Shown piece after piece: positions 2,782 to 63,090 of a stretch of DNA of 64,000 nt (positions are counted from its first letter, which is position 1; every line of letters begins with the position of its first letter). Under the pieces are notes generated by a model that saw only the letters and a program-made list of their open reading frames with translations, made no database searches and had not been told where the DNA came from. The stretch spans positions 1,039 to 65,038 of the IMG/VR virus record IMGVR_UViG_3300031994_000099; one strand, given 5' to 3'. This DNA comes from a virus (Duplodnaviria > Caudoviricetes). The translations under genes and the position numbers were made by a program.

Positions 2782-3711
2782 TTAACCTCTCATCAGTTCC
2801 GCCATTAGTTCCTGGGCCTCAGCCGGGGTCAGGTCCCCGGGGTCCCTGGGTTCCCCCTTCGGATTTTTCCCCAGGTCGGCACGGGCCACCCACACCTTAT
2901 TCCCGCAGGAGGCTATATCACGGGCGGCAGCCCTGGCGTGCTCCTGGGCCTCGTCTTCAGGGTCAAACAGAAATACAACCTCTGACCAGCGGGTCAGGAG
3001 GCTGACCTGCTCACGGGTCATAGAGGTCCCAAAGGTAGCCACAGAGCCGGGACCCATACGCCATTGGTCAAAAACCCCCTCCACTACCACAATGCGGTCT
3101 AGGTCCCTGGCGAGGTGGGCCCCATACAATAGGTGCTTATGGTGGGCCCCGGCCTCAGCCACGGGGCATCCCTTGTATCGCAGGTCTTGTTTCCCGGTAA
3201 TGTCCCGGCCCTGAAAATTTACGAGGTTCCCGTCTAGGTCATAAATTGGGATGATTATGCGGAGCCTGAAGTCACTCCCCTTCCATATAGAGGTGGGCCC
3301 GGTTCCCTTTATCCCATACCGCTCCACAAGTTGCTGGGCCCTGAAATTACGCTTGTGCAGGTAGTCAATATGGGGCTGCTCTAGGGCACCGCCTGGGATG
3401 CCCTCCAGGATTTTCCCGGTGGCTGTCTTTCGCTCCGGGGCAGATGTATGAACGGACCCGGTGGTGTAGTCCCTAATCAGCCGCTGGGCCTCTGCTAGGG
3501 GTAGGCGGGCGGCTAGGGACAAGGCCCGTGTAGGGCTACAGCCGGGGCAACGCCAACATTGATAGTCCCCATTGTCTATGCCAAAGGACCCGTGGTTGGA
3601 ATGGTCCCCGCACAATGGGCACTGGATATTTACCCGGCCCGGCGTGCAGTTCTTGCCACTGGTCCAGTTAGGCACCCGGAGGCTATCAAGTAGGCGGGCC
3701 CAATCAACCAT
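2782..3711 (-). CDS. DNA primase (N-terminal Zn finger plus TOPRIM)
   Basis: CPLCGDH...CWRC zinc finger; TOPRIM motifs VVVEGVFD and FLFDPEDEA. Confidence 0.85.
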   Translation of the reverse strand: MVDWARLLDSLRVPNWTSGKNCTPGRVNIQCPLCGDHSNHGSFGIDNGDYQCWRCPGCSPTRALSLAARLPLAEAQRLIRDYTTGSVHTSAPERKTATGKILEGIPGGALEQPHIDYLHKRNFRAQQLVERYGIKGTGPTSIWKGSDFRLRIIIPIYDLDGNLVNFQGRDITGKQDLRYKGCPVAEAGAHHKHLLYGAHLARDLDRIVVVEGVFDQWRMGPGSVATFGTSMTREQVSLLTRWSEVVFLFDPEDEAQEHARAAARDIASCGNKVWVARADLGKNPKGEPRDPGDLTPAEAQELMAELMRG

Positions 3712-6336: not shown

Positions 6337-7238
6337 CGTCTATCCTTATTGAGGTGGTCAAGCACCTCGTTTATTATACCCTTGACGCCGGGGGCGGTTC
6401 CAGGTTCCTCTGCCGCAGCCTTCAGGTTGTCGGTAAAGGATAGGGTCACGGAGGCAGCTGCCGTTGCGACCTCCAGGCACTTATCCATCCGCTCATCCCG
6501 CTCCTTTTCGGCAGCCAGGTAGTCCGTGACCACATCGGCAGAATTGAGGGGGAGGTAGTGAGGCGTGACCTGGGCCGTGCCGGTGTCCCAGATATATACA
6601 CGGGGCTTGTAGTCATCCATGTCTGCGGCCTGGATATTAAGGCAGCCCGGAGTAATTACCCGGCGGCCATCTGCCCCAGTGTAGACATAGCCCCGGTGAT
6701 AGTCCCCCGTGACCACTACCTGAACGCCCGGAGCCTCGTCAAGGAGGTCCTGGGCTATCTTACCCCCGGCCATAGGGGGCTTGGTCTCAGCGTTCTCAAA
6801 GGTCAGCTGGTGAGTGGCCCATACATCGGTATGGGGGTCAACCGGGTCCAGGCCAAACGGGGCGGCGGTAAGAGTGAACCCCCTAGAGTCCTCACGGGTG
6901 CGGAGTTCGGGGAATGACTTGAGGACAATCCCAAGGCTGCTCTGCTCCAGGTTCCCATAGTCATGATAGGGGAGGTCATGGTTGCCCGGCAGGATATAGA
7001 CCGGGCAGACCTCCCGGAGGTTCTTGAGGCCTACCAGGACCATATTGACGGCCTCTGTGGCTGCACGGGGCTGGTGGAACAAATCACCTAGCACCCACGC
7101 CTCGTCAACCTTTTCCCGGCGGACTATATCTACCACGGCCTGAATGTCCTGACGCTGGGACTCAATCCAGTCCTCATCAATACGGCAGCGGGGGCGGTCC
7201 CCCCGGATGTGCCAGTCAGCAGTTAAAAGAATTTTCAT
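6333..7238 (-). CDS. sbcD: SbcD/Mre11 metallophosphoesterase nuclease
   Basis: ADWH, LGDLF, PGNHD, THQ, GDYH phosphoesterase motifs. Confidence 0.88.
   Translation of the reverse strand: MKILLTADWHIRGDRPRCRIDEDWIESQRQDIQAVVDIVRREKVDEAWVLGDLFHQPRAATEAVNMVLVGLKNLREVCPVYILPGNHDLPYHDYGNLEQSSLGIVLKSFPELRTREDSRGFTLTAAPFGLDPVDPHTDVWATHQLTFENAETKPPMAGGKIAQDLLDEAPGVQVVVTGDYHRGYVYTGADGRRVITPGCLNIQAADMDDYKPRVYIWDTGTAQVTPHYLPLNSADVVTDYLAAEKERDERMDKCLEVATAAASVTLSFTDNLKAAAEEPGTAPGVKGIINEVLDHLNKDRR
6374..6391 (-). promoter_or_regulatory. Phage-specific promoter motif CCGG-N7-GGTATAA
   Basis: Exact motif; 8 exact copies with fixed spacing, all upstream of minus-strand genes. Confidence 0.7.
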
Positions 7239-9999: not shown

Positions 10000-10120
10000 G
10001 GTTCTAGTCCTTTGCCCCGGAGGGGCGGTTGAGTTGTTCCTTTAACGCTTATAAATATAACTCTTTTTCATTCCCCCGTAAAGGGGTCTGAACCATTATT
10101 TTTAGTAAAATTTTATTTAC
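10000..10120 (-). promoter_or_regulatory. Early promoter/leader cassette, copy 2 of 5
   Basis: Same conserved blocks as copy 1. Confidence 0.85.
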
Positions 10121-10121
10121 G

Positions 10122-10181
10122 AAAAAGCCCCCGGCAGTAGAAAAATTTTCAACCCTTAAAAAGTGAAACTGCCGGGGGCCC
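10122..10181 (-). terminator. Intrinsic terminator after the SbcC N-half
   Basis: CCCCCGGCAGT/ACTGCCGGGGG stem followed by a T-run on the minus strand. Confidence 0.65.
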
Positions 10182-18804: not shown

Positions 18805-18878
18805 TTGCCTCAGCGGGACTTGAACCCGCATACTCCACCTTCGGAGGGTGGCACCTTATCCAGTTAGGCCATGAGACA
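18805..18878 (-). tRNA. tRNA-Arg (anticodon CCG)
   Basis: Cloverleaf: TGTCTCA/TGAGGCA acceptor, GCCT/AGGT D-stem, CCACC-CTCCGAA-GGTGG anticodon arm, GCGGG-TTCAAGT-CCCGC T-arm; CCA not encoded. Confidence 0.93.
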
Positions 18879-29442: not shown

Positions 29443-31353
29443 TCACCTGCCCCGGCGGGCTAGGATTTCAGTGAGTAGGTCCATATCAACCGGGGCCTTG
29501 CCGTCCATTACCCCGTCCAACATTTTAGCACGCTGGTCCAGGACCTCTATTGCGTCCATATCAATCGTGCCCTTGGCCACGAGGTAGTAGGAATTGACCG
29601 GGACTCCCTGGCCACCTCTATGAAGGCGGTCCTCAGCCTGGCGGTGGTCATTAGGGGTATGGCTAAATTCAAGGAACACGCAGTGGCTGCATACCTTCTG
29701 GAACCCGTCAATGCCCACGCCCCCGGCCTGGATATTAGCGACCATTACCCGGCACTTTTCATCATTGACAAATTTCTGAACGGCCTTGTCCCGGTCCCCA
29801 GTAGACATTCCCCCGTATAACTTGGCGGCGTGATATTCCTTCATCTCAGCCGTCACGAGGTCCACCACATCCCGGTGCCAGGCGAAAATAAGCAACTTGT
29901 TGTCGGTGTCCTCCAAAAAATTCCTTATCCACTCCATGGCGGGTTTTTCCTTCACGGAGTAGGCTGACCGCAGGAGGCCCGCAATGCGTTCCCTCAGTTC
30001 AGCCTTTGTAGCATTGTCCTGGCTAAAGGCCTCATGTTCAGCGGCCTGATACTCTGCCAGTGCCTTCTGGTCGGGTTCTAGGGGTATCACATCCACTGTC
30101 TTGGGCGGGAGGTCCTTCATGACCTGGGCCTTGGTTCGCCTCACCATTACATCTACCAGGAGGCGGTGGAGTTCCTGGATGTGGGAGGCACCATTGTAGG
30201 TCATCCCAAACCCATTAGACTTCGGGCCGCAATAGCGGTTGAGGTAGTGGTAATAGTTGGGGAATTTATCAGGCGAGAGGATATTGAGCAGCGGCCAGAA
30301 CTGGGCGGGCTTGGACCGGGCGGGCGTTCCGCTCATCCCAATCAGTCCTGGGATGACCTTGGACAATGCCCTAAAGGCCTTGGACCTCTTGGAGGTCGGG
30401 TTGCCTATGGCCTGGCACTCATCGCCAATAAGCAGCTGGAACCCAAACTTGGCCAGCGGCCCATCAGTAATAAAGGCCCCGTTGCCAGCAATATGCCCGG
30501 CCCAGTCTGCTAGAATATCCCAGTTGATAATGTAACTCACGCCCGGCTCCATCGGAAATGGCTTGCGGCCAGACAGCACCCCAATCCGCTTAAACATAGG
30601 GCTGACTGCGTGGACTTTTCCCAGCCAGTCCTTAAAGGCACGGGCCCACTGCAGTTTAGTCGGGGCGTTCACTACAATCAACGCCGGGAATGCCCCAGAG
30701 TAGGCAAGCCACGCAAGGGCCTGCACTGTTTTTCCCGTCCCCATATCATCGCCAAGTGCGGCCCGGCCCTTGCGGAGGGACATGAAACGGACAAAATCAA
30801 CCTGATAGGGGTAAAGGCCTGGGATGAGCGGGCGGCATTCCTCTAGCCTCACGGCCTTAATCTTTTTTGCCTGCTCTTCAGTCGGGTCCGGGGGCGGCGG
30901 CAGAGGGGCTGCCGGGGCCGTTTCAACTTGCTCCGGGGGAATAGTCCACCCGGATGCTATCAGCCACGCTACATAGGCGGGCTTGTCCGGGACATCCCAG
31001 AGTTTAGTTGCCGGGTTAAACGAGCGGGCCGGGAGGGTCCTGACCCTCTCAAGCACTACCCTCCACTGGTCCTTGTCCCTGCTAGCCCACGAGAGGATGA
31101 GGCGGCCCTTGTCGTCACCCTGGCCCCTTGCACAGGTGTAGGTCACGCCCTTTACCGGGCCAAGCGGGGCTGGGAGTCCCGTGGGGCTTAACAACTTACT
31201 AGACTGGATGGCAGCCTGAACCCTTTTGTCCGGCATCGGGACCGGGGCCAGGGGCTGGTAGCGGGGGCCACTAGTCAATGGGGTTTTATATAAATTAACT
31301 TTTCCGGATGGGCCGTTGGTGGGTTCGCTTGGCGGTGGCGGATAATTACTCAC
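29443..31353 (-). CDS. SNF2-family helicase with HARP-like N-terminus
   Basis: LYPYQ, GDDMGTGKT, DECQ, SGTP, RRTK, QAEDRLHRGGQ. Confidence 0.9.
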   Translation of the reverse strand: MSNYPPPPSEPTNGPSGKVNLYKTPLTSGPRYQPLAPVPMPDKRVQAAIQSSKLLSPTGLPAPLGPVKGVTYTCARGQGDDKGRLILSWASRDKDQWRVVLERVRTLPARSFNPATKLWDVPDKPAYVAWLIASGWTIPPEQVETAPAAPLPPPPDPTEEQAKKIKAVRLEECRPLIPGLYPYQVDFVRFMSLRKGRAALGDDMGTGKTVQALAWLAYSGAFPALIVVNAPTKLQWARAFKDWLGKVHAVSPMFKRIGVLSGRKPFPMEPGVSYIINWDILADWAGHIAGNGAFITDGPLAKFGFQLLIGDECQAIGNPTSKRSKAFRALSKVIPGLIGMSGTPARSKPAQFWPLLNILSPDKFPNYYHYLNRYCGPKSNGFGMTYNGASHIQELHRLLVDVMVRRTKAQVMKDLPPKTVDVIPLEPDQKALAEYQAAEHEAFSQDNATKAELRERIAGLLRSAYSVKEKPAMEWIRNFLEDTDNKLLIFAWHRDVVDLVTAEMKEYHAAKLYGGMSTGDRDKAVQKFVNDEKCRVMVANIQAGGVGIDGFQKVCSHCVFLEFSHTPNDHRQAEDRLHRGGQGVPVNSYYLVAKGTIDMDAIEVLDQRAKMLDGVMDGKAPVDMDLLTEILARRGR

Positions 31354-32315
31354 TTGAAAAACCTCCTGGGAACAGATACGCCCCGCTCACGGGACAGCCA
31401 CCCCATAAAGTCCACCCAGGCCGGGGAGGTCGGGCAGATAAATCCAAAGGGGACAAAGCCCCCTGCCTTTGCGTAATCTAGGATGCGCAAGAAAAAGGCT
31501 GACCCGGAACCGAACACCAGCCGGGCCTCCGGGCAAATTCCTACTAGGTCCGCACCCCTAGCAAGCCACCACTGGTAGGCCTCACGGGCACCCTTCCAGA
31601 ACATTAGTTCCTGGGCCTGGCCCCAGCGGGCTGGCTGCTTGCCCATAGCCTCGCAAAGAATATCGGAGGCGACATTGCAGACCTTATGGGGCACCTGCTC
31701 CTTTAGTGCGGCTATCTGTTCACGGGGAGGCAACGCCCGGTCCTGCCTCCATAGGATGGCTACAAATGGGCTGTATGCCCCAGAGTTAGGGGGAGTGGTC
31801 ACAATGAAGTCCACCAGGGACACCTTCTGACGCCTCCCGGCCTTCATAGGTGGGTAGGGGTAGCCCTCCGGGACAAGGGCCTCAAGGCGGCCAAGGGCCG
31901 TGTCTAGGCAGTCAATAAGTTGGTCCAGGTCTGACGGGACCCTGGGCATGATAAATTCCCCGGAGGGGCTGTTGGACTTGACCCAGGCGGCTCCCCACTG
32001 GTAGGCTGCCTGGAATGTCCCCAGGAGCAGCTGCGAGAGAACCAGCTGGAGGCGGCTGCCTACCTTTGACAGGTTGTCCGGGTCCAGTTTTGTCTGGGAT
32101 ATAAGGGCCTTGTGTCGGGACATCAGGTCAGAGAGTCCCCGGAACTGGTCTGCCGTAAACTTGAAGGCTTCGTGCCTCCCAGCGGGAATTATCCTGCCCT
32201 TAATGCGGACTGGGTGGACCTTCGGCAATACCTGGACCTTTACCACAAAGGCCTCCGGGCGGTCCATCCCAGCCGGGACAAATGCCTCATTAGGGTCTAG
32301 CACTTCGGCAGTCAC
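31350..32315 (-). CDS. Hypothetical protein (321 aa)
   Basis: ORF track; coupled to its neighbours. Confidence 0.65.
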   Translation of the reverse strand: MTAEVLDPNEAFVPAGMDRPEAFVVKVQVLPKVHPVRIKGRIIPAGRHEAFKFTADQFRGLSDLMSRHKALISQTKLDPDNLSKVGSRLQLVLSQLLLGTFQAAYQWGAAWVKSNSPSGEFIMPRVPSDLDQLIDCLDTALGRLEALVPEGYPYPPMKAGRRQKVSLVDFIVTTPPNSGAYSPFVAILWRQDRALPPREQIAALKEQVPHKVCNVASDILCEAMGKQPARWGQAQELMFWKGAREAYQWWLARGADLVGICPEARLVFGSGSAFFLRILDYAKAGGFVPFGFICPTSPAWVDFMGWLSRERGVSVPRRFFK

Positions 32316-32710
32316 TTGGCCCCTGCCTTGTTCGGGTGCTTACTTATCCAGCGGGCAATAAAGGCCCGGCACCCTTCTATGGTGTCCGGGTAGGCCTCTA
32401 AAAATTCTGCCCTCATCTGCGATGCCGTTACATTCTCAACCCGGACCAGGCGGGCCTTCATGGGCTCTAGGTTCTTGCCCCTATACTCAGGCCTAAACCA
32501 TTGGACACTGGGGGAATAGCCCCGGCCCGTCATCTCAAGCAGGACCTGGGAATGATACCACACCAGGGTAGGCTGGGGGAGGTTCCACAGCCACTGGAGG
32601 CGGCGGCCCTTGCCCCATGACTTGCCCCTAAAGCGGCAGCAGTCCCTATGGAGGGCACACAGCATCCGGGGAGGGAGGGTTGAAAGTAGTTCTGGGTGAA
32701 TTATACGCAT
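32312..32710 (-). CDS. Pyrimidine-dimer DNA glycosylase / endonuclease V-like protein
   Basis: MRIIHPELLSTLPPRMLCALHRDCCRFRGKSWGK matches the MRLWH..L...LP...L...HRECC..RG..WG pattern. Confidence 0.7.
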   Translation of the reverse strand: MRIIHPELLSTLPPRMLCALHRDCCRFRGKSWGKGRRLQWLWNLPQPTLVWYHSQVLLEMTGRGYSPSVQWFRPEYRGKNLEPMKARLVRVENVTASQMRAEFLEAYPDTIEGCRAFIARWISKHPNKAGAK

Positions 32711-32738
32711 ACAAAGTCCTTGAAAAGGTCTTGCGGTA

Positions 32739-32756
32739 TTATACCCTGGGGGCCGG
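32739..32756 (-). promoter_or_regulatory. CCGG-N7-GGTATAA promoter (head of the replication operon)
   Basis: Exact motif. Confidence 0.7.
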
Positions 32757-32764
32757 GGGCCATC

Positions 32765-32819
32765 GTAAATAAAATTTTACTGAAACCGCCTAGAAAAGGC
32801 CCGGCGAAAAAAGTATAAT
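32765..32819 (+). promoter_or_regulatory. Divergent promoter: GTAAATAAAATTTTAC box plus CCGG-N7-AGTATAA
   Basis: Same 16-bp box as in the early cassettes and a one-mismatch copy of the promoter motif, pointing into the structured non-coding region. Confidence 0.6.
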
Positions 32820-32824
32820 TTACC

Positions 32825-33500
32825 TGGGCCCGGCAAAACGGGTTCAGCGGTCACGGGGTAACCAGCCCCCGGAGGCGGTCAGCCCGGAGGGTAAAAGCCG
32901 GGCGAACTGGGACAAGAGCAACCTGGTAATAGAGCCAGTAAGAGTCCCGCCACTAGCGGCGTCAGCGAACAAGGTTGAGTGGTGTATAGAGGTAGAGAAC
33001 AAGAGGCCTTGCAACCTCCTGGAGCCTATCTTCAAACAGAGTCCCGGCCCACAAAAGGTTGTGCCTATTCCATAGTAAGATATTTTGGCGGCGGGGCCTC
33101 CCCTCAAGCATTTTCGCAGGGCAGGTCCAGCAGTCTTGTGTTCGCCAGCCCTGGTCGCTATGGGTGGATATTCAGCCGGGACATTTCCCGCCATGACTTT
33201 TTAGTCGCAGTGTAGCGTGAGCAGACCCCTGACAGGATGACCTGGGGGTTGGGAGCAATCCCAGTAGCGTGTCGCCCGTGAAATCCGGGCTTGGTGATAG
33301 TCCATACTTTGATGGGGTATTTAGCCAAATTGCTCCCGTTTCCGGGGGCAGTTTGGCTCCTGAACCTCCATTTCCGGGGTAAGCCTTCGGCAAGGCATTA
33401 GGACCATAAAGGGTCTAGGCCTAGACCATGAATGCCTCATGAGGTATGGCGTGAGCCACGAGTCATAGGGCATAAGGCCTCAGTAAAAGGTTTAATTTAG
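32825..33500 (+). ncRNA. Large structured ncRNA candidate (~670 nt)
   Basis: No credible ORF; many hairpins, including GGGA-GCAA-TCCC (33251-62), a 16-bp stem with G-U pairs (33323-58), CAGACCCC/GGGGGTTG and GCCCG/CGGGC; upstream promoter. Confidence 0.6.
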
Positions 33501-33509
33501 GCCCATACT

Positions 33510-33737
33510 ATGTCAAAACCTCAATTTTTCGGCACACTAGATGGATACATCAGGGGTCACGGGCTGACCTTCGGACACCTCCATGTGGTCCGGGAGGCTC
33601 CCCACTACCCTCCCCCTCCAATAGGTCAGCAGCCGGGTCCCCCGGCGGCTCCGGGCCGTCACTCCACTCCCCGTGAGTGGTGGGAGGCCCAGGCAGAGTT
33701 CTACGGGTGCCCGGTCCCTCCCTATCCAGGGGACTAG
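33510..33737 (+). CDS. Possible small Pro-rich protein
   Basis: ORF track; followed by a terminator; no recognised domain. Confidence 0.35.
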   Translation: MSKPQFFGTLDGYIRGHGLTFGHLHVVREAPHYPPPPIGQQPGPPAAPGRHSTPREWWEAQAEFYGCPVPPYPGD

Positions 33738-33762
33738 CCACCCAAAAGCCCACTTTTAAGGC
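33738..33762 (+). repeat. 25-bp motif CCACCCAAAAGCCCACTTTTAAGGC (inverted copy at 61304-61328)
   Basis: 23/25 identity with the reverse complement of 61304-61328. Confidence 0.6.
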
Positions 33763-33801
33763 TGGATTGGGGTTGAGGGGTCCATCTATACACCCCCTAT
33801 C

Positions 33802-33836
33802 AGAAAAAGGTGGCCTAGCAGCCACCCTTCTTTTGT
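33802..33836. terminator. Bidirectional terminator at a convergence point
   Basis: AGAAAAAGGTGGC-CTAGCA-GCCACCCTTCTTTT. Confidence 0.65.
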
Positions 33837-34001
33837 TTACCATTTCCTTGAGATGTCCCAGGGCCTCCTGCCCCTGCGGGGTTCCTCCCGGTTCCGGGAG
33901 TCCGCAGCAGCCCTGATGGCCAGTTCCAGGTCCTCTATTGCGTCCCTTGCGGAGTAGTCCCAGCGGAGGGCGTTGCGGCACGGGGCCGCACCCCTAGACA
34001 T
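33837..34001 (-). CDS. Small hypothetical protein (54 aa; not in ORF track)
   Basis: Manual translation MSRGAAPCRNALRWDYSARDAIEDLELAIR...; TAATG overlap with the upstream stop. Confidence 0.5.
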   Translation of the reverse strand: MSRGAAPCRNALRWDYSARDAIEDLELAIRAAADSRNREEPRRGRRPWDISRKW

Positions 34002-34837
34002 TAGGCCTCCCCCTTAACCGGGAACACATTTACACGGATGTGCCAGCAGACAATGTTATAGCCAGCCACGCCCTTGCTCACTACCTCGCAGCGGCCCTTC
34101 TCACCAATCACGATGCCGTTCAGCACAGAGTAGCCGTGGGTGCCGTGGGTGATAGAGAGGCCAGAGCAGTCCGTGGCCGTGCCCACATAGCGTTCTACAC
34201 GCTGGGCCAGGTCCTGGACGAGGGTGGCGGCATCTTCGGCGGCTCCCTTCTCAATCTGGGCATCCGTCAGGGCAGCCATGCGTTTCAGTTTTTCCTGCTC
34301 GTCACGGGCGGCCTCAATGCGGCAGAACCTGGTCCAGGCATCCGAACCATGCCCGGCCTTGTAGGCCTCACGGCGGGCATCATAGTAGTCATCCACTGAA
34401 TACCACTCCCCGTTGTCCTTGCGTTCGGCAATGTCGTTCTGGGCAAAGGTCCTGCGGAACTTCCTATCAATGATGAGGCTGCGTTCAAGTTCACCCTGGT
34501 AGACCTTAATGGCCTTGGGGATAGCGTTGACCTTGGCCTCAGACTCAGCCAGTTCCTTGTTAAGGCGGTCCAGGTCCATCCTGCGGCCAAAGATTTCAGA
34601 CTTGCGGCGTTCAATCCCCTCACGGGCCTGGTCTGCGGTGTAGGCCGGGGTCCAGAGTCCGTTGGTCACGCAGTTCTTGGTGTCGTTCCCGTCACCCTTG
34701 AACTCATACCCGGCCTTGGCCAACTTGGCGATGGCGTTGTTCATACGGGTCTCAAGGCGGGGCAGGGCCTCCTCAGCCTTGCGGATAGCGGCCTGGGCCC
34801 TCTCAATATCCTTCTTGATGGTTTCAATCTTGCGCAT
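34001..34837 (-). CDS. Early hypothetical protein (278 aa, coiled-coil)
   Basis: Downstream of early cassette copy 3. Confidence 0.7.
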   Translation of the reverse strand: MRKIETIKKDIERAQAAIRKAEEALPRLETRMNNAIAKLAKAGYEFKGDGNDTKNCVTNGLWTPAYTADQAREGIERRKSEIFGRRMDLDRLNKELAESEAKVNAIPKAIKVYQGELERSLIIDRKFRRTFAQNDIAERKDNGEWYSVDDYYDARREAYKAGHGSDAWTRFCRIEAARDEQEKLKRMAALTDAQIEKGAAEDAATLVQDLAQRVERYVGTATDCSGLSITHGTHGYSVLNGIVIGEKGRCEVVSKGVAGYNIVCWHIRVNVFPVKGEA

Positions 34838-34957
34838 TTTTCTAGTCCTTTGCCCCGGAGGGGCGGTTGATTTTGTCCTTTAACGCTTATAAATATAACT
34901 CTTTTTTCGTGAAAAGGGTAGTGGTTCAGGCAACTTTTTTCGTAAAATTTTATTTAC
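34838..34957 (-). promoter_or_regulatory. Early promoter/leader cassette, copy 3 of 5
   Basis: Conserved blocks as in copy 1. Confidence 0.85.
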
Positions 34958-35002
34958 TAAAAATAGGCCCTCCGGGGAGTGCCCCAGGGAGCCTTCAGCG
35001 GC

Positions 35003-35200
35003 CTATCCTTTACGGCGTTTTTGTAGTTCCTCTGGGGTAGCCTCCCGGCCCTTTAGACTGGCCCGGTGGATAATGCGGAGGCACCTTTTACAAAAGTAGC
35101 AGTATGCACCGCCCCAGAGGACAAACAGAGCCTTGCCCCTGGGGACTACCTCCCGGTGCCCCTGGCAGAACACCATGCGGTTATGGTCTTGCGCACTCAT
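35003..35200 (-). CDS. Small Zn-finger-like protein
   Basis: FCQGH...YCYFCKRC. Confidence 0.5.
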   Translation of the reverse strand: MSAQDHNRMVFCQGHREVVPRGKALFVLWGGAYCYFCKRCLRIIHRASLKGREATPEELQKRRKG

Positions 35201-35206
35201 CGGCGT

Positions 35207-35437
35207 TCACCCCTTTAGCCAGGCAGCCCGGTCCCTAACACTGTGGGTCCCGTCCCCAAAGGCCCAGACGAATTTCATGAACAACGCCATGGCGGCCTCC
35301 CTCGTTTCTATGCCTCCCTTGACGGCCTCCACGCCATCCTCCCCGTGGTAGTATACATAGAACTTGTTGCCGTCAGCGTTTAGGCTAACCCACTGGCCAC
35401 TGTGTGTTTCCTCAACCCTCATGATTTGGTAGTTCAT
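35207..35437 (-). CDS. Hypothetical protein
   Basis: ORF track; RBS GGGAGGGGG. Confidence 0.6.
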   Translation of the reverse strand: MNYQIMRVEETHSGQWVSLNADGNKFYVYYHGEDGVEAVKGGIETREAAMALFMKFVWAFGDGTHSVRDRAAWLKG

Positions 35438-35449
35438 ACAGCCCCCTCC

Positions 35450-35672
35450 CTAGAGTTCCACCTTAATGTTACGGACAAAGGCCCACTCAGTGATGTCGGT
35501 CTTTACATAGTCCGCATCCGGGCTGCGGTCAATGTGTTCCTTTTCATCCCTGGCCACCTTAATGGCCGCCTCAAGGCTGTTCCTATACTTGGGGGGAGTT
35601 GTTGCCCACCTGCCCGTTCATACTGACCTGCGGGTTCCTATACCTGAAAAATGTTACTACTCTGTATTTCAT
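35450..35672 (-). pseudogene. Small gene frameshifted at a G6/C6 run
   Basis: MKYRVVTFFRYRNPQVSMNGQVGNNS stops early; removing one C of the run at 35591-35596 restores a 73-aa ORF ending ...RNIKVEL*. Confidence 0.5.
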
Positions 35673-35674
35673 TG

Positions 35675-35941
35675 CTATGCCTCCTGGTATGCATAAAGCG
35701 TATCTGCCTTGCAACGCTTATCATAGGTGTTGCCGTCCCCGCACTTAACGAAAAGATGGACCATTGTCTTTCCACATGGGGTAACCTCCATAACCTCTTG
35801 CGTTGACCCTCCCGTGCAAATCATAATATCCCCGGCCCTGAAGTCCCTTGCAGGCTTTGCAGGCCTCCAGCCGCAGCACGGCACTAAAATTTCCCCGTCA
35901 TGGCGGTGAAAGTAGGCATCAAGTTTTTCAATAGGGGTCAT
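35675..35941 (-). CDS. Early hypothetical protein
   Basis: Downstream of early cassette copy 4. Confidence 0.7.
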   Translation of the reverse strand: MTPIEKLDAYFHRHDGEILVPCCGWRPAKPARDFRAGDIMICTGGSTQEVMEVTPCGKTMVHLFVKCGDGNTYDKRCKADTLYAYQEA

Positions 35942-36053
35942 GGTTCTAGTCCTTTGGGGTCCTGGACCCCGGTTGATTTTGTCCTTTAACGCTTATAAAT
36001 ATAACTCTTTACGCATGAAAAGGGTAGGGGTAGAATAGTAAAATTTTATTTAC
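35942..36053 (-). promoter_or_regulatory. Early promoter/leader cassette, copy 4 of 5
   Basis: About 80 bp identical to copy 5. Confidence 0.85.
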
Positions 36054-36114
36054 TTTTCCCCATAAAAATCTTACTTTTTACTTACGGCACAGAAAATAGG
36101 CTATATTTAGGGGT

Positions 36115-36948
36115 ATGAATACCCGTCAGAAATACAACTCCACCATTCCAAAGGTAAAGCGGGGGCCAGAGCCTATGACCCACCGCCGCCCCACGGATAA
36201 TAGCCCCGCAGAGGCAGGCACCATTGCCTATGTCCCGCCCCGCACCTCCGGGGCTAAAAAGGACCCCACTGCCCTATTCCCGGACTGGAAGGCATCCGGG
36301 GCCTCCCTTGAGGAGGTCATATTTGCGGCTGAGTATCTTCAGAGCCGCTTTGACGCCGGGGCTGCTTACCGGGCAACCAACCCCAAGACCTCCCCCCGGA
36401 ACGACAGTGCCCACGGCATGGCTATGTTAAGGCGGCCCGCTGTCCAGGCCCTATTGACGGACTACACCAGCAGCTGGCTCCGGGGACGGGCGGCCCAACT
36501 AGAGTATGAGTTGTTCAGCACCCTCCACGCCCTCGCATTCTATGACCCCGGCCAGCTGGTCAACCCGGACGGCACTGCTGCCTTTAGTTCCTGGGATGAA
36601 CTGCCCGTTGAAATTCGCCGCTGCGTCACGGCCATTGATGTCAAGTTCTACGGCAAGGATGCTAACCGGGAGGCCGTCACCATTACCCTAGCCAATAGGG
36701 CTGATGCCCTAAAGGCCATTGCTGGCTACCTCGCCACTATCAAGAATGGGATGAACGCCCAGATGAACGATGCTATGAGGGTATCTGCCGACACTGAACT
36801 GCTCCTGGGCTCTATTATGTCCGGGGGACGCCCGGTTGACCGCCGCTCCCCCGCCCAGCGGAGGGCTGACGCCATCCAGGCTGACCGGGCCTCCGAAGGT
36901 CCTGCCGAAGGGTATGAGGCCCCACCAGTTATCAGGGGGCTGGCCTAA
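36115..36948 (+). CDS. terS: Terminase small subunit
   Basis: Immediately upstream of TerL; AAYRA...LRRPAV...AFYDPGQLVNPDG...DELP.EIRR pattern. Confidence 0.7.
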   Translation: MNTRQKYNSTIPKVKRGPEPMTHRRPTDNSPAEAGTIAYVPPRTSGAKKDPTALFPDWKASGASLEEVIFAAEYLQSRFDAGAAYRATNPKTSPRNDSAHGMAMLRRPAVQALLTDYTSSWLRGRAAQLEYELFSTLHALAFYDPGQLVNPDGTAAFSSWDELPVEIRRCVTAIDVKFYGKDANREAVTITLANRADALKAIAGYLATIKNGMNAQMNDAMRVSADTELLLGSIMSGGRPVDRRSPAQRRADAIQADRASEGPAEGYEAPPVIRGLA

Positions 36949-62639: not shown

Positions 62640-62948
62640 TTAGGCCTCCTTGCAAGCCTTGCCAGTGAATGCCGCATAGGTATCATTGAGAAAATCACCC
62701 ATTACGCCGGCATAGTAGTGGTCCTGGGGAATGGTATCACGGAACTTGACCACGGCCTTGCGGGCACTCTCTTTGGCACTGTCACTCCAGTGGAACTTAA
62801 CGGCCACGGCTATCATTCTCCAGGCATCCGTGGCGAGGCGGGCGGCCTGAGCAGCATCATACTTTACGAACAGCCCGCAGTTTTCAATCATCTGTTCCAG
62901 GTGGTGGCAGAAGGCGATGGTGTCGTTGGTAGTGATAGATTTTTTCAT
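62640..62948 (-). CDS. Early hypothetical protein
   Basis: Downstream of early cassette copy 5. Confidence 0.7.
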   Translation of the reverse strand: MKKSITTNDTIAFCHHLEQMIENCGLFVKYDAAQAARLATDAWRMIAVAVKFHWSDSAKESARKAVVKFRDTIPQDHYYAGVMGDFLNDTYAAFTGKACKEA

Positions 62949-63058
62949 GGTTCTAGTCCTTTGGGCCTGAGGCCCGGTTGATTTTGTCCTTTAACGCTTA
63001 TAAATATAACTCTTTACGCATGAAAAGGGTAGGGGTAGAATAGTAAAATTTTATTTAC
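62949..63058 (-). promoter_or_regulatory. Early promoter/leader cassette, copy 5 of 5
   Basis: Conserved blocks as in copy 1. Confidence 0.85.
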
Positions 63059-63059
63059 G

Positions 63060-63090
63060 AAAAAGCCCCCGGCGTTCAGCCGGAGGCTCA
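63060..63090 (-). terminator. Intrinsic terminator after the PAPS-reductase-like gene
   Basis: GCCTCCGGC-TGAAC-GCCGGGGGC followed by TTTTT. Confidence 0.65.

Follow-up and report, generated by a model that had tools for sequence, protein, structure and literature searches.

The window analyzed here, the whole 64,000-nucleotide (nt) stretch taken from the IMG/VR record IMGVR_UViG_3300031994_000099 (parent record 65 kb, rated complete), carries a large structured phage RNA that represents a new, narrowly distributed family. The RNA lies in the interval 32711-33509, between a leftward operon and the right-hand block of genes, and its conserved core spans 571 nt (about 570) of the plus strand, from 32826 to 33396; the boundary was placed there because similarity to distant relatives ends at about 33383-33396. 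We hold with high confidence that a conserved structured RNA exists at this locus. A sequence-only reading of the window had proposed a large ornate non-coding RNA of about 670 nt at this place. That size proved too large, since 33397-33509 is a variable linker before a small open reading frame (ORF), ORF75 (33510-33737), which is conserved in relatives and had gone without mention.

A fold maintained by compensatory changes

Two IMG/VR contigs contain the region, and more copies were obtained through clusters of flanking proteins in ENA and Logan assemblies. As a result, 12 distinct full or partial copies were collected from sheep, cattle, and pig gut assemblies, whose identity to the window was 98% at the highest and 72-73% at the lowest (L024 and the L025 group). 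Compared with L005, which is 84% identical overall, identity was 83-99% per 100 nt over 32700-33399 and 60-94%, mostly 80-90%, in the flanking genes, indicating that the RNA interval is equally or better conserved.

A consensus fold calculated with RNAalifold on alignment A5, which holds 10 full-length sequences, comprised 154 base pairs (bp) in 27 helices, with three multistem junctions. Both sides had changed with pairing kept in at least one sequence in 41 of the 154 pairs (87 cells), compared with 19.6 ± 2.8 pairs in 500 shuffles and only 3-6 pairs when the partners were slid by 1-3 columns. The proportion of paired cells was 97.0%, against 90.3 ± 0.4% in the shuffled and 33-47% in the slid alignments, and the covariation score was 0.229, against 0.110 and not above 0.046, respectively. 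None of the 500 shuffles reached any of the observed pairing or covariation measures. The changes are readily seen in individual helices, such as those at 32923-32938 (CUGG/CCAG, CCUG/CAGG, and CUGA/UCAG), 32853-32872 (CGGGG/CCCCG, CGUGG/CCACG, and GGUGG/CCACC), and 33215-33270 (GCGU/GCGU, GUGU/GCAC, and GCAU/GUGU).

The plus strand is the folded strand, because G-U cells outnumbered A-C mismatch cells by 192 to 19; the same helices read on the other strand had about 85% of their cells paired. The minimum free energy of the plus strand, -281 kcal/mol (z = -4.07), was better than that of shuffled sequences and of the minus strand (-252 kcal/mol, z = -2.44). The fold is thus kept by compensating changes and is selected on the plus strand. 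Collecting homologs and checking them for covariation had been suggested together with the initial proposal, and the excess of two-sided changes in the 10-sequence alignment over both controls, the strand bias, and the hairpin at the very 5' start bear out a large ornate non-coding RNA.

The 5'-terminal hairpin, P1, begins 7 nt after the -10 element in all lineages, and a transcription start at about 32826, where this conserved hairpin begins, is predicted from the position of the promoter. RNAalifold had instead placed a long-range helix at 32841-45 / 33401-05, with 82% of cells paired; it was dropped in favor of the local P1, which forms in all lineages. In the 5' region (Table 1), pairs changed on both sides were found in H2 (4), H3 (1), H4 (2), H5 (3), H6 (1), and H9 (2). 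The central domain H10-H16 contributed 16 such pairs, with 93-100% of cells paired per helix. Its apical 16-nt indel (33104-33120), which leaves a shorter hairpin in L011, L037, L038, L025, and L024, is ordinary variable-stem behavior. A scan for pseudoknots, made as a search for non-nested covarying helices among these few sequences, yielded weak candidates only, each backed by one covarying pair, and we claim none.

Most of the stems picked out by eye in the sequence-only reading recur in this fold. Those at 32882-32903 (GCCCGG/CCGGGC against GGCAGG/CCTGCC) and 33222-33251 covary, the one at 33274-33290 is invariant, and the GNRA hairpin has an invariant stem. The stem at 33323-33358 is present with its U-G pairs, although it has 15 bp rather than 16. 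The hairpin at 33383-33396 (H27) is also present, and unrelated hairpins take its place in the distant relatives L025 and L024, where DNA similarity to the window ends. The palindrome at 33412-33427 does exist, but distant relatives lack it, and it falls beyond the end of the conserved core.

The interval had further been described as free of genes, and this description stands. The sole long frame in 32711-33509 is a minus-strand frame of 116 amino acids (aa) at 32844-33194; this frame and an 84-codon open stretch on the plus strand were rejected as genes, since neither is kept in relatives, among which open frames in the RNA region vary in place and phase. Substitutions by codon position (9/16/11, 32/23/35, and 35/21/33) showed no third-position excess, and indels of 1-2 nt relative to L005, at 33057, 33099, 33118, and 33300, are not multiples of three. 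Gene callers run on the related contigs called zero genes in the RNA interval.

Table 1. Features of the RNA locus, related elements, and RNA-library contigs, in window coordinates
Feature	Position	Strand	Details
A+T-rich box GTAAATAAAATTTTAC	32765-32780	+	Between the two divergent promoters
Divergent promoter of leftward operon (CCGG-N8-GTATAA)	32739-32756	-	Exact motif match; -10 GGTATAAT kept in all relatives
RNA promoter	32791-32819	+	Sigma-70-like: -35 TAGAAA, 17-nt spacer, -10 TATAAT; score 10/12
Phage motif CCGG-N8-GTATAA	32801-32818	+	Overlaps the sigma-70-like RNA promoter
P1, 5'-terminal hairpin	32826-32845	+	7-9 bp in 12/12 relatives; sequences and loop sizes differ
5' region	32847-33031	+	H2 32847-32879, H3 32882-32903, H4/H5 32909-32948, H6/H7 32949-32983, H8/H9 32990-33031
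Central multistem domain H10-H16	33041-33182	+	Three-way junction and variable-length apical hairpin
3' multistem domain H17-H23	33189-33296	+	Four-way junction enclosing a three-way junction; GNRA hairpin; 6 pairs changed on both sides
GNRA hairpin	33250-33263	+	Stem invariant; loop GCAA or GUAA
3' hairpins	33301-33396	+	H24 33301-33316, H25 33323-33358 (15 bp), H26 33364-33380, H27 33383-33396
Variable linker	33397-33509	+	Includes palindrome GGTCTAGGCCTAGACC (33412-33427); unconserved in distant relatives
ORF75	33510-33737	+	75 codons, downstream of the RNA
Intrinsic-terminator-like hairpin	33809-33826	+	6 bp, 5 of them G-C, then CTTCTTTTGT; not clearly kept in L025
Cassette copies with box GTAAATAAAATTTTAC	2662-2780, 10002-10134, 34838-34963, 35926-36054, 62946-63070	-	Ahead of genes of 193, 112, 278, 88, and 102 aa
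X3 contig, sheep gut	32837-33248		Depth 6.9
X16 contig, bovine gut	32849-33225		Depth 18.1
X19 contig, digester	32841-33241		Depth 5.8
X18 contig, bovine gut	33083-33291		Depth 2.6; no other phage piece in this run

A function of its own or a leader of ORF75

We propose that the locus is a gene for a highly structured non-coding RNA of about 570 nt, running on the plus strand from 32826 to about 33396 in one tailed-phage lineage of ruminant and pig guts, which would be transcribed from a strong sigma-70-type promoter. The box upstream of this promoter is common to five small-gene units that read as early genes, and early timing may be supposed for the RNA as well. The transcript would begin with a protective 5' hairpin, and fold into about 27 helices with three multistem junctions and a GNRA hairpin. 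It might serve in trans as a scaffold, a decoy, or a particle that assembles itself, as ROOL and GOLLD do. We consider it moderately probable that this is an early-made, stable, folded RNA acting in trans, rather than only the leader of ORF75. We give rather little credence to a more specific form of the idea, namely that the RNA is a self-assembling RNA-only multimer or a catalytic RNA of new fold that captures or modifies a host component at the onset of infection, for example as a counter-defense decoy. If true, ornate RNA machines of the ROOL/GOLLD type would have arisen independently a third time, here in a setting whose infection phenotype could be traced.

Four metatranscriptome runs, belonging to three studies, supplied Logan contigs that were placed on 30500-36500, a 6-kb stretch in which gaps between contigs carry no weight. 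The RNA region was covered in all four runs (Table 1), and other phage pieces in X3 and X16 had depths of about 2-3. The break between two adjacent X3 contigs, from 32827 to 32837, coincides with the predicted start. We take this coverage as a hint that is consistent with expression. Contigs of the three studies stop at 33225-33248, and the related pig gut contig L019 has a junction at 33245. A processing site at about 33245 was considered on these grounds; the point was not taken as an end of the RNA, because the covarying helix H19 spans it and contigs cross it (X18 33083-33291 and X3 33228-33418). The shared stop might stem from RNA processing, from a recombinant that is common, or from assembly.

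Several observations weigh against a trans-acting RNA gene. Many helices of the 3' half are invariant and hence have no covariation support, and the relatives amount to only about 7-8 independent lineages, all at least 72% identical. A blastn search against 50,697 phage records gave no match to the RNA, and three conserved words, searched as exact patterns in IMG/VR, matched only in the two relatives already known. Pattern scans of JGI metagenomes and GTDB genomes returned one match each, sharing only a 21-nt word and judged to be chance, and neither a prophage copy nor a host turned up in this word scan. The covariance model R1, which covers the 3' domain, found a single copy in the window (140.5 bits) and no match in the 213-kb and 33-kb records of distant phages with the 278-aa gene described below. 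As far as these searches reach, then, the family is narrow and known only from one phage lineage. In L019 (899-1433), the RNA promoter and the first about 420 nt of the RNA are kept, up to window position 33245, and unrelated minus-strand genes (118, 109, and 56 aa) follow. This contig is either a recombinant phage or chimeric; if it is real, the 3' part of the RNA is dispensable there. With regard to the transcripts, RNA-library contigs give no strand, true ends, or reliable level, the X3 contig at 32620-32827 spans the promoter gap, so that DNA carry-over is possible, and in X19 the terS-region contig has a depth of 6.3, on par with the RNA contig of that run. Finally, neither a terminator nor a second promoter was found between the RNA and ORF75. 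The two are probably on one transcript, and formally the RNA is a 685-nt leader of the ORF75 mRNA.

A possible, though unlikely, alternative is accordingly that the RNA is a giant cis-acting 5' leader that controls translation or stability of the ORF75 mRNA, for example by binding its product or a metabolite. This would fit the single promoter for both, the absence of any promoter-like site between them, the fact that ORF75 follows the RNA in every relative extending that far, and the protein-level conservation of ORF75 in distant relatives (44% identity in L024; 48.6% in the L025 group, over 74 residues and with gaps that keep the frame). However, frameshifts or stops interrupt ORF75 in L005/L012, L018, and L020 (at least three lineages), yet the RNA fold is complete in each of them, and the linker holding its translation start and ribosome-binding region (33397-33509) is the least conserved part of the locus. 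Both observations argue for an RNA function independent of ORF75. In addition, about 27 helices and 570 nt are far above known cis-regulators, and, as a weak point, contig depth peaks over the first 420 nt of the RNA rather than over ORF75.

ORF75 was called as a gene in further relatives. Its termini are conserved (N-terminal MSKPQFFGTLDGYIRG and C-terminal EWWEAQAEFYGCPVPPYPGD), its middle is Pro-rich and variable in length, and it had no match in Pfam, PHROG, or Atlas. The hairpin at 33809-33826 is the probable end of the RNA/ORF75 transcription unit. The palindrome GGTCTAGGCCTAGACC in the linker is perfect over 16 nt and, with its tail CTTTAT, has a terminator-like score on the minus strand; leftward transcripts from the 278-aa gene and a 54-aa gene could stop there. 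Other palindromes take its place in L005 and L012.

Relation to known large RNAs

Very few bacterial and phage non-coding RNAs exceed 500 nt and have complex conserved folds, and the known large ones (rRNA, RNase P, group I/II introns, OLE, GOLLD, and ROOL) are ribozymes, ribonucleoprotein cores, or RNA-only cages. The RNA described here adds a covariation-supported example with a defined promoter and a clear setting beside probable early genes. It also comes with natural variants, namely lineages without an intact downstream ORF and one apparently truncated form, and could serve as a compact model for the roles of large phage RNAs.

ColE1 RNA II, a structured transcript of about 550 nt, is made from a constitutive promoter and adjoins replication functions. 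A replication primer or origin RNA of this type, or of the T4 R-loop type, would persist as a hybrid downstream and, once processed, serve as the primer for DNA synthesis beside the replication module. The RNA of the window is similar to RNA II in size and adjoins replication genes (an SNF2 helicase and a DnaB-like protein), and a less conserved, palindrome-bearing stretch (33397-33509) follows its core. Nevertheless, we consider a primer function improbable: neither iterons nor DnaA-box-like repeats were seen, no antisense promoter of the RNA I type was found in 32300-34100, the cumulative GC skew has no turning point at the locus, and the RNA is transcribed away from the replication genes and is followed by a conserved protein ORF.

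To compare the RNA with catalogued families, we ran cmscan with all 4227 Rfam 15 families. At gathering scores, only a tRNA was found in the window, and the covariance models of GOLLD, OLE, HEARO, raiA, group I/II introns, RNase P, tmRNA, and 6S gave no match. With permissive filters over 32600-33800 and E up to 10, nothing was better than E = 1.5; the best sub-threshold matches were to microRNA, small RNA, and small nucleolar RNA models at chance level (E 1.5-8.8), with no ROOL, GOLLD, or OLE among them. When ROOL (RF03087, gathering score 99.1 bits) was run alone against the whole record, a single first-look candidate was scored and no match was obtained at E up to 10. As far as the Rfam 15 libraries reach, the family stands as uncatalogued, in agreement with the earlier suggestion of a possible new class.

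ROOL is nevertheless the closest parallel to weigh, and a very divergent ROOL or GOLLD missed by the covariance models would be consistent with the size, rumen origin, and phage context of ROOL, whose mean length is 581 nt (Weinberg et al. 2017, PMC5737381). The likeness extends to a length of about 570-580 nt, many helices with multistem junctions (27 helices in the 571-nt core here), rumen or gut samples, phages or prophages as carriers, and few invariant unpaired nucleotides. In contrast, ROOL has six junctions and three pseudoknots, whereas the consensus fold here has three predicted junctions and no supported pseudoknot. ROOL also occurs in several bacterial phyla rather than a single phage lineage and often lies near tRNA genes, whereas the only tRNA of the window (18805-18878) is 14 kb away. 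Given the cmscan results and the lack of a nearby tRNA, we regard such a divergent member as very improbable. Cryo-electron microscopy has shown ROOL and GOLLD to form homo-oligomeric RNA-only assemblies (PMC12286853).

Other large RNAs share single traits with the one described here. GOLLD is likewise large, ornate, and often phage-borne; it differs in being often placed beside tRNAs, and its covariance model has no match here. It is also larger, at about 800 nt. OLE, at about 600 nt, is highly structured and highly expressed, but it is chromosomal, belongs to extremophilic or anaerobic Bacillota, and works with OapA and other protein partners (PMC3413148, PMC12054373); genes of the partner type are not found near the phage locus, and the OLE model has no match. 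A covariation-based catalogue of candidate structured RNAs was drawn from IMG/VR, the same collection as this phage, by Fremin et al. (2023); its elements are 29-151 bases long, so that it could list fragments of the RNA at most (PMC10690425).

Least probable of all is that the locus is no RNA gene but a double-stranded DNA element (a site of packaging or an origin that binds protein) or an overlooked protein gene: the small terminase gene is 2.6 kb away and the 116-aa minus-strand frame is open, but selection acts on base pairing rather than on sequence and on one strand only, and the frame is unconserved and broken by indels.

Promoter, upstream box, and neighboring genes

The phage promoter claimed by the sequence-only reading was recovered as CCGG-N8-GTATAA, which occurs 18 times in the window with at most one mismatch, against 3.6 expected, and which overlaps a sigma-70-like promoter at the RNA. 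The -10 element of the RNA promoter reads GTATAAT or GTATAAC in all relatives but L018/L019 (GTATATT). Nearly all copies of the motif are on the minus strand in the left arm, ahead of minus-strand genes (for example at 6374, 14885, 16843, 18409, 18954, 24575, 27119, and 32739), and the sole exact plus-strand copy is the RNA promoter (32801).

The box GTAAATAAAATTTTAC upstream of this promoter had been read as an early operator. Its presence is clear, with 6 exact copies in the window against 0.13 expected, and it is invariant among the relatives except L024 (GTAAAGAAAGATTTAC). The distance from the box to the -10 element is identical in all 6 units. The box lies at about -45 to -60, a position that suits an UP element or activator site better than a repressor operator, and it is probably one of the former. 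The other five copies belong to a cassette of about 130 nt, consisting of a promoter and a 5' untranslated region (5'UTR), ahead of small minus-strand genes. Its order is the box, a -10-like TTATATTTATAAG, a leader hairpin, the Shine-Dalgarno sequence AAAGGA, and ATG, and pairing in the leader hairpin is kept despite changes (CCGGGCC/GGCCC, CGCCCC/GGGGC, and GGGGTCC/GGACCCC). This five-copy cassette looks like a common regulatory leader of a co-regulated, probably early, set of genes. The idea that the RNA pairs with this cassette was also considered and was rejected, as duplex energies were no better than those of shuffles.

Sequencing runs with the window stretch derive from a digester and from the guts of sheep, cattle, and other animals. 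A sheep gut metagenome is the likely source sample, and pig-gut assemblies contain close relatives. The terminase large subunit is only about 34% identical to Enterococcus and Lactococcus phage terminases, which is too little to point to a host. To the left of the RNA, the minus-strand operon starting at 32710 encodes a pyrimidine-dimer glycosylase, a 321-aa protein, and the SNF2-type helicase; to the right are small minus-strand genes, followed by terminase genes from 36115.

One of these right-hand genes, at 34001-34837 on the minus strand, encodes 278 aa and is named DivIVA-like by one source. It is missing from L005, whose sequence jumps from 33989 to 34793, and homologues 41-43% identical are carried by L007, a jumbo-phage contig of 213 kb, and by L008. 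The gene seems to be a mobile early-gene cassette. On the other side, the Logan contigs L025-L030 (region 3100-3500), which are the 73%-identity relatives, carry a shortened glycosylase gene (83 or 117 aa) or have none called, and the RNA and a 318-aa gene are intact beside it.
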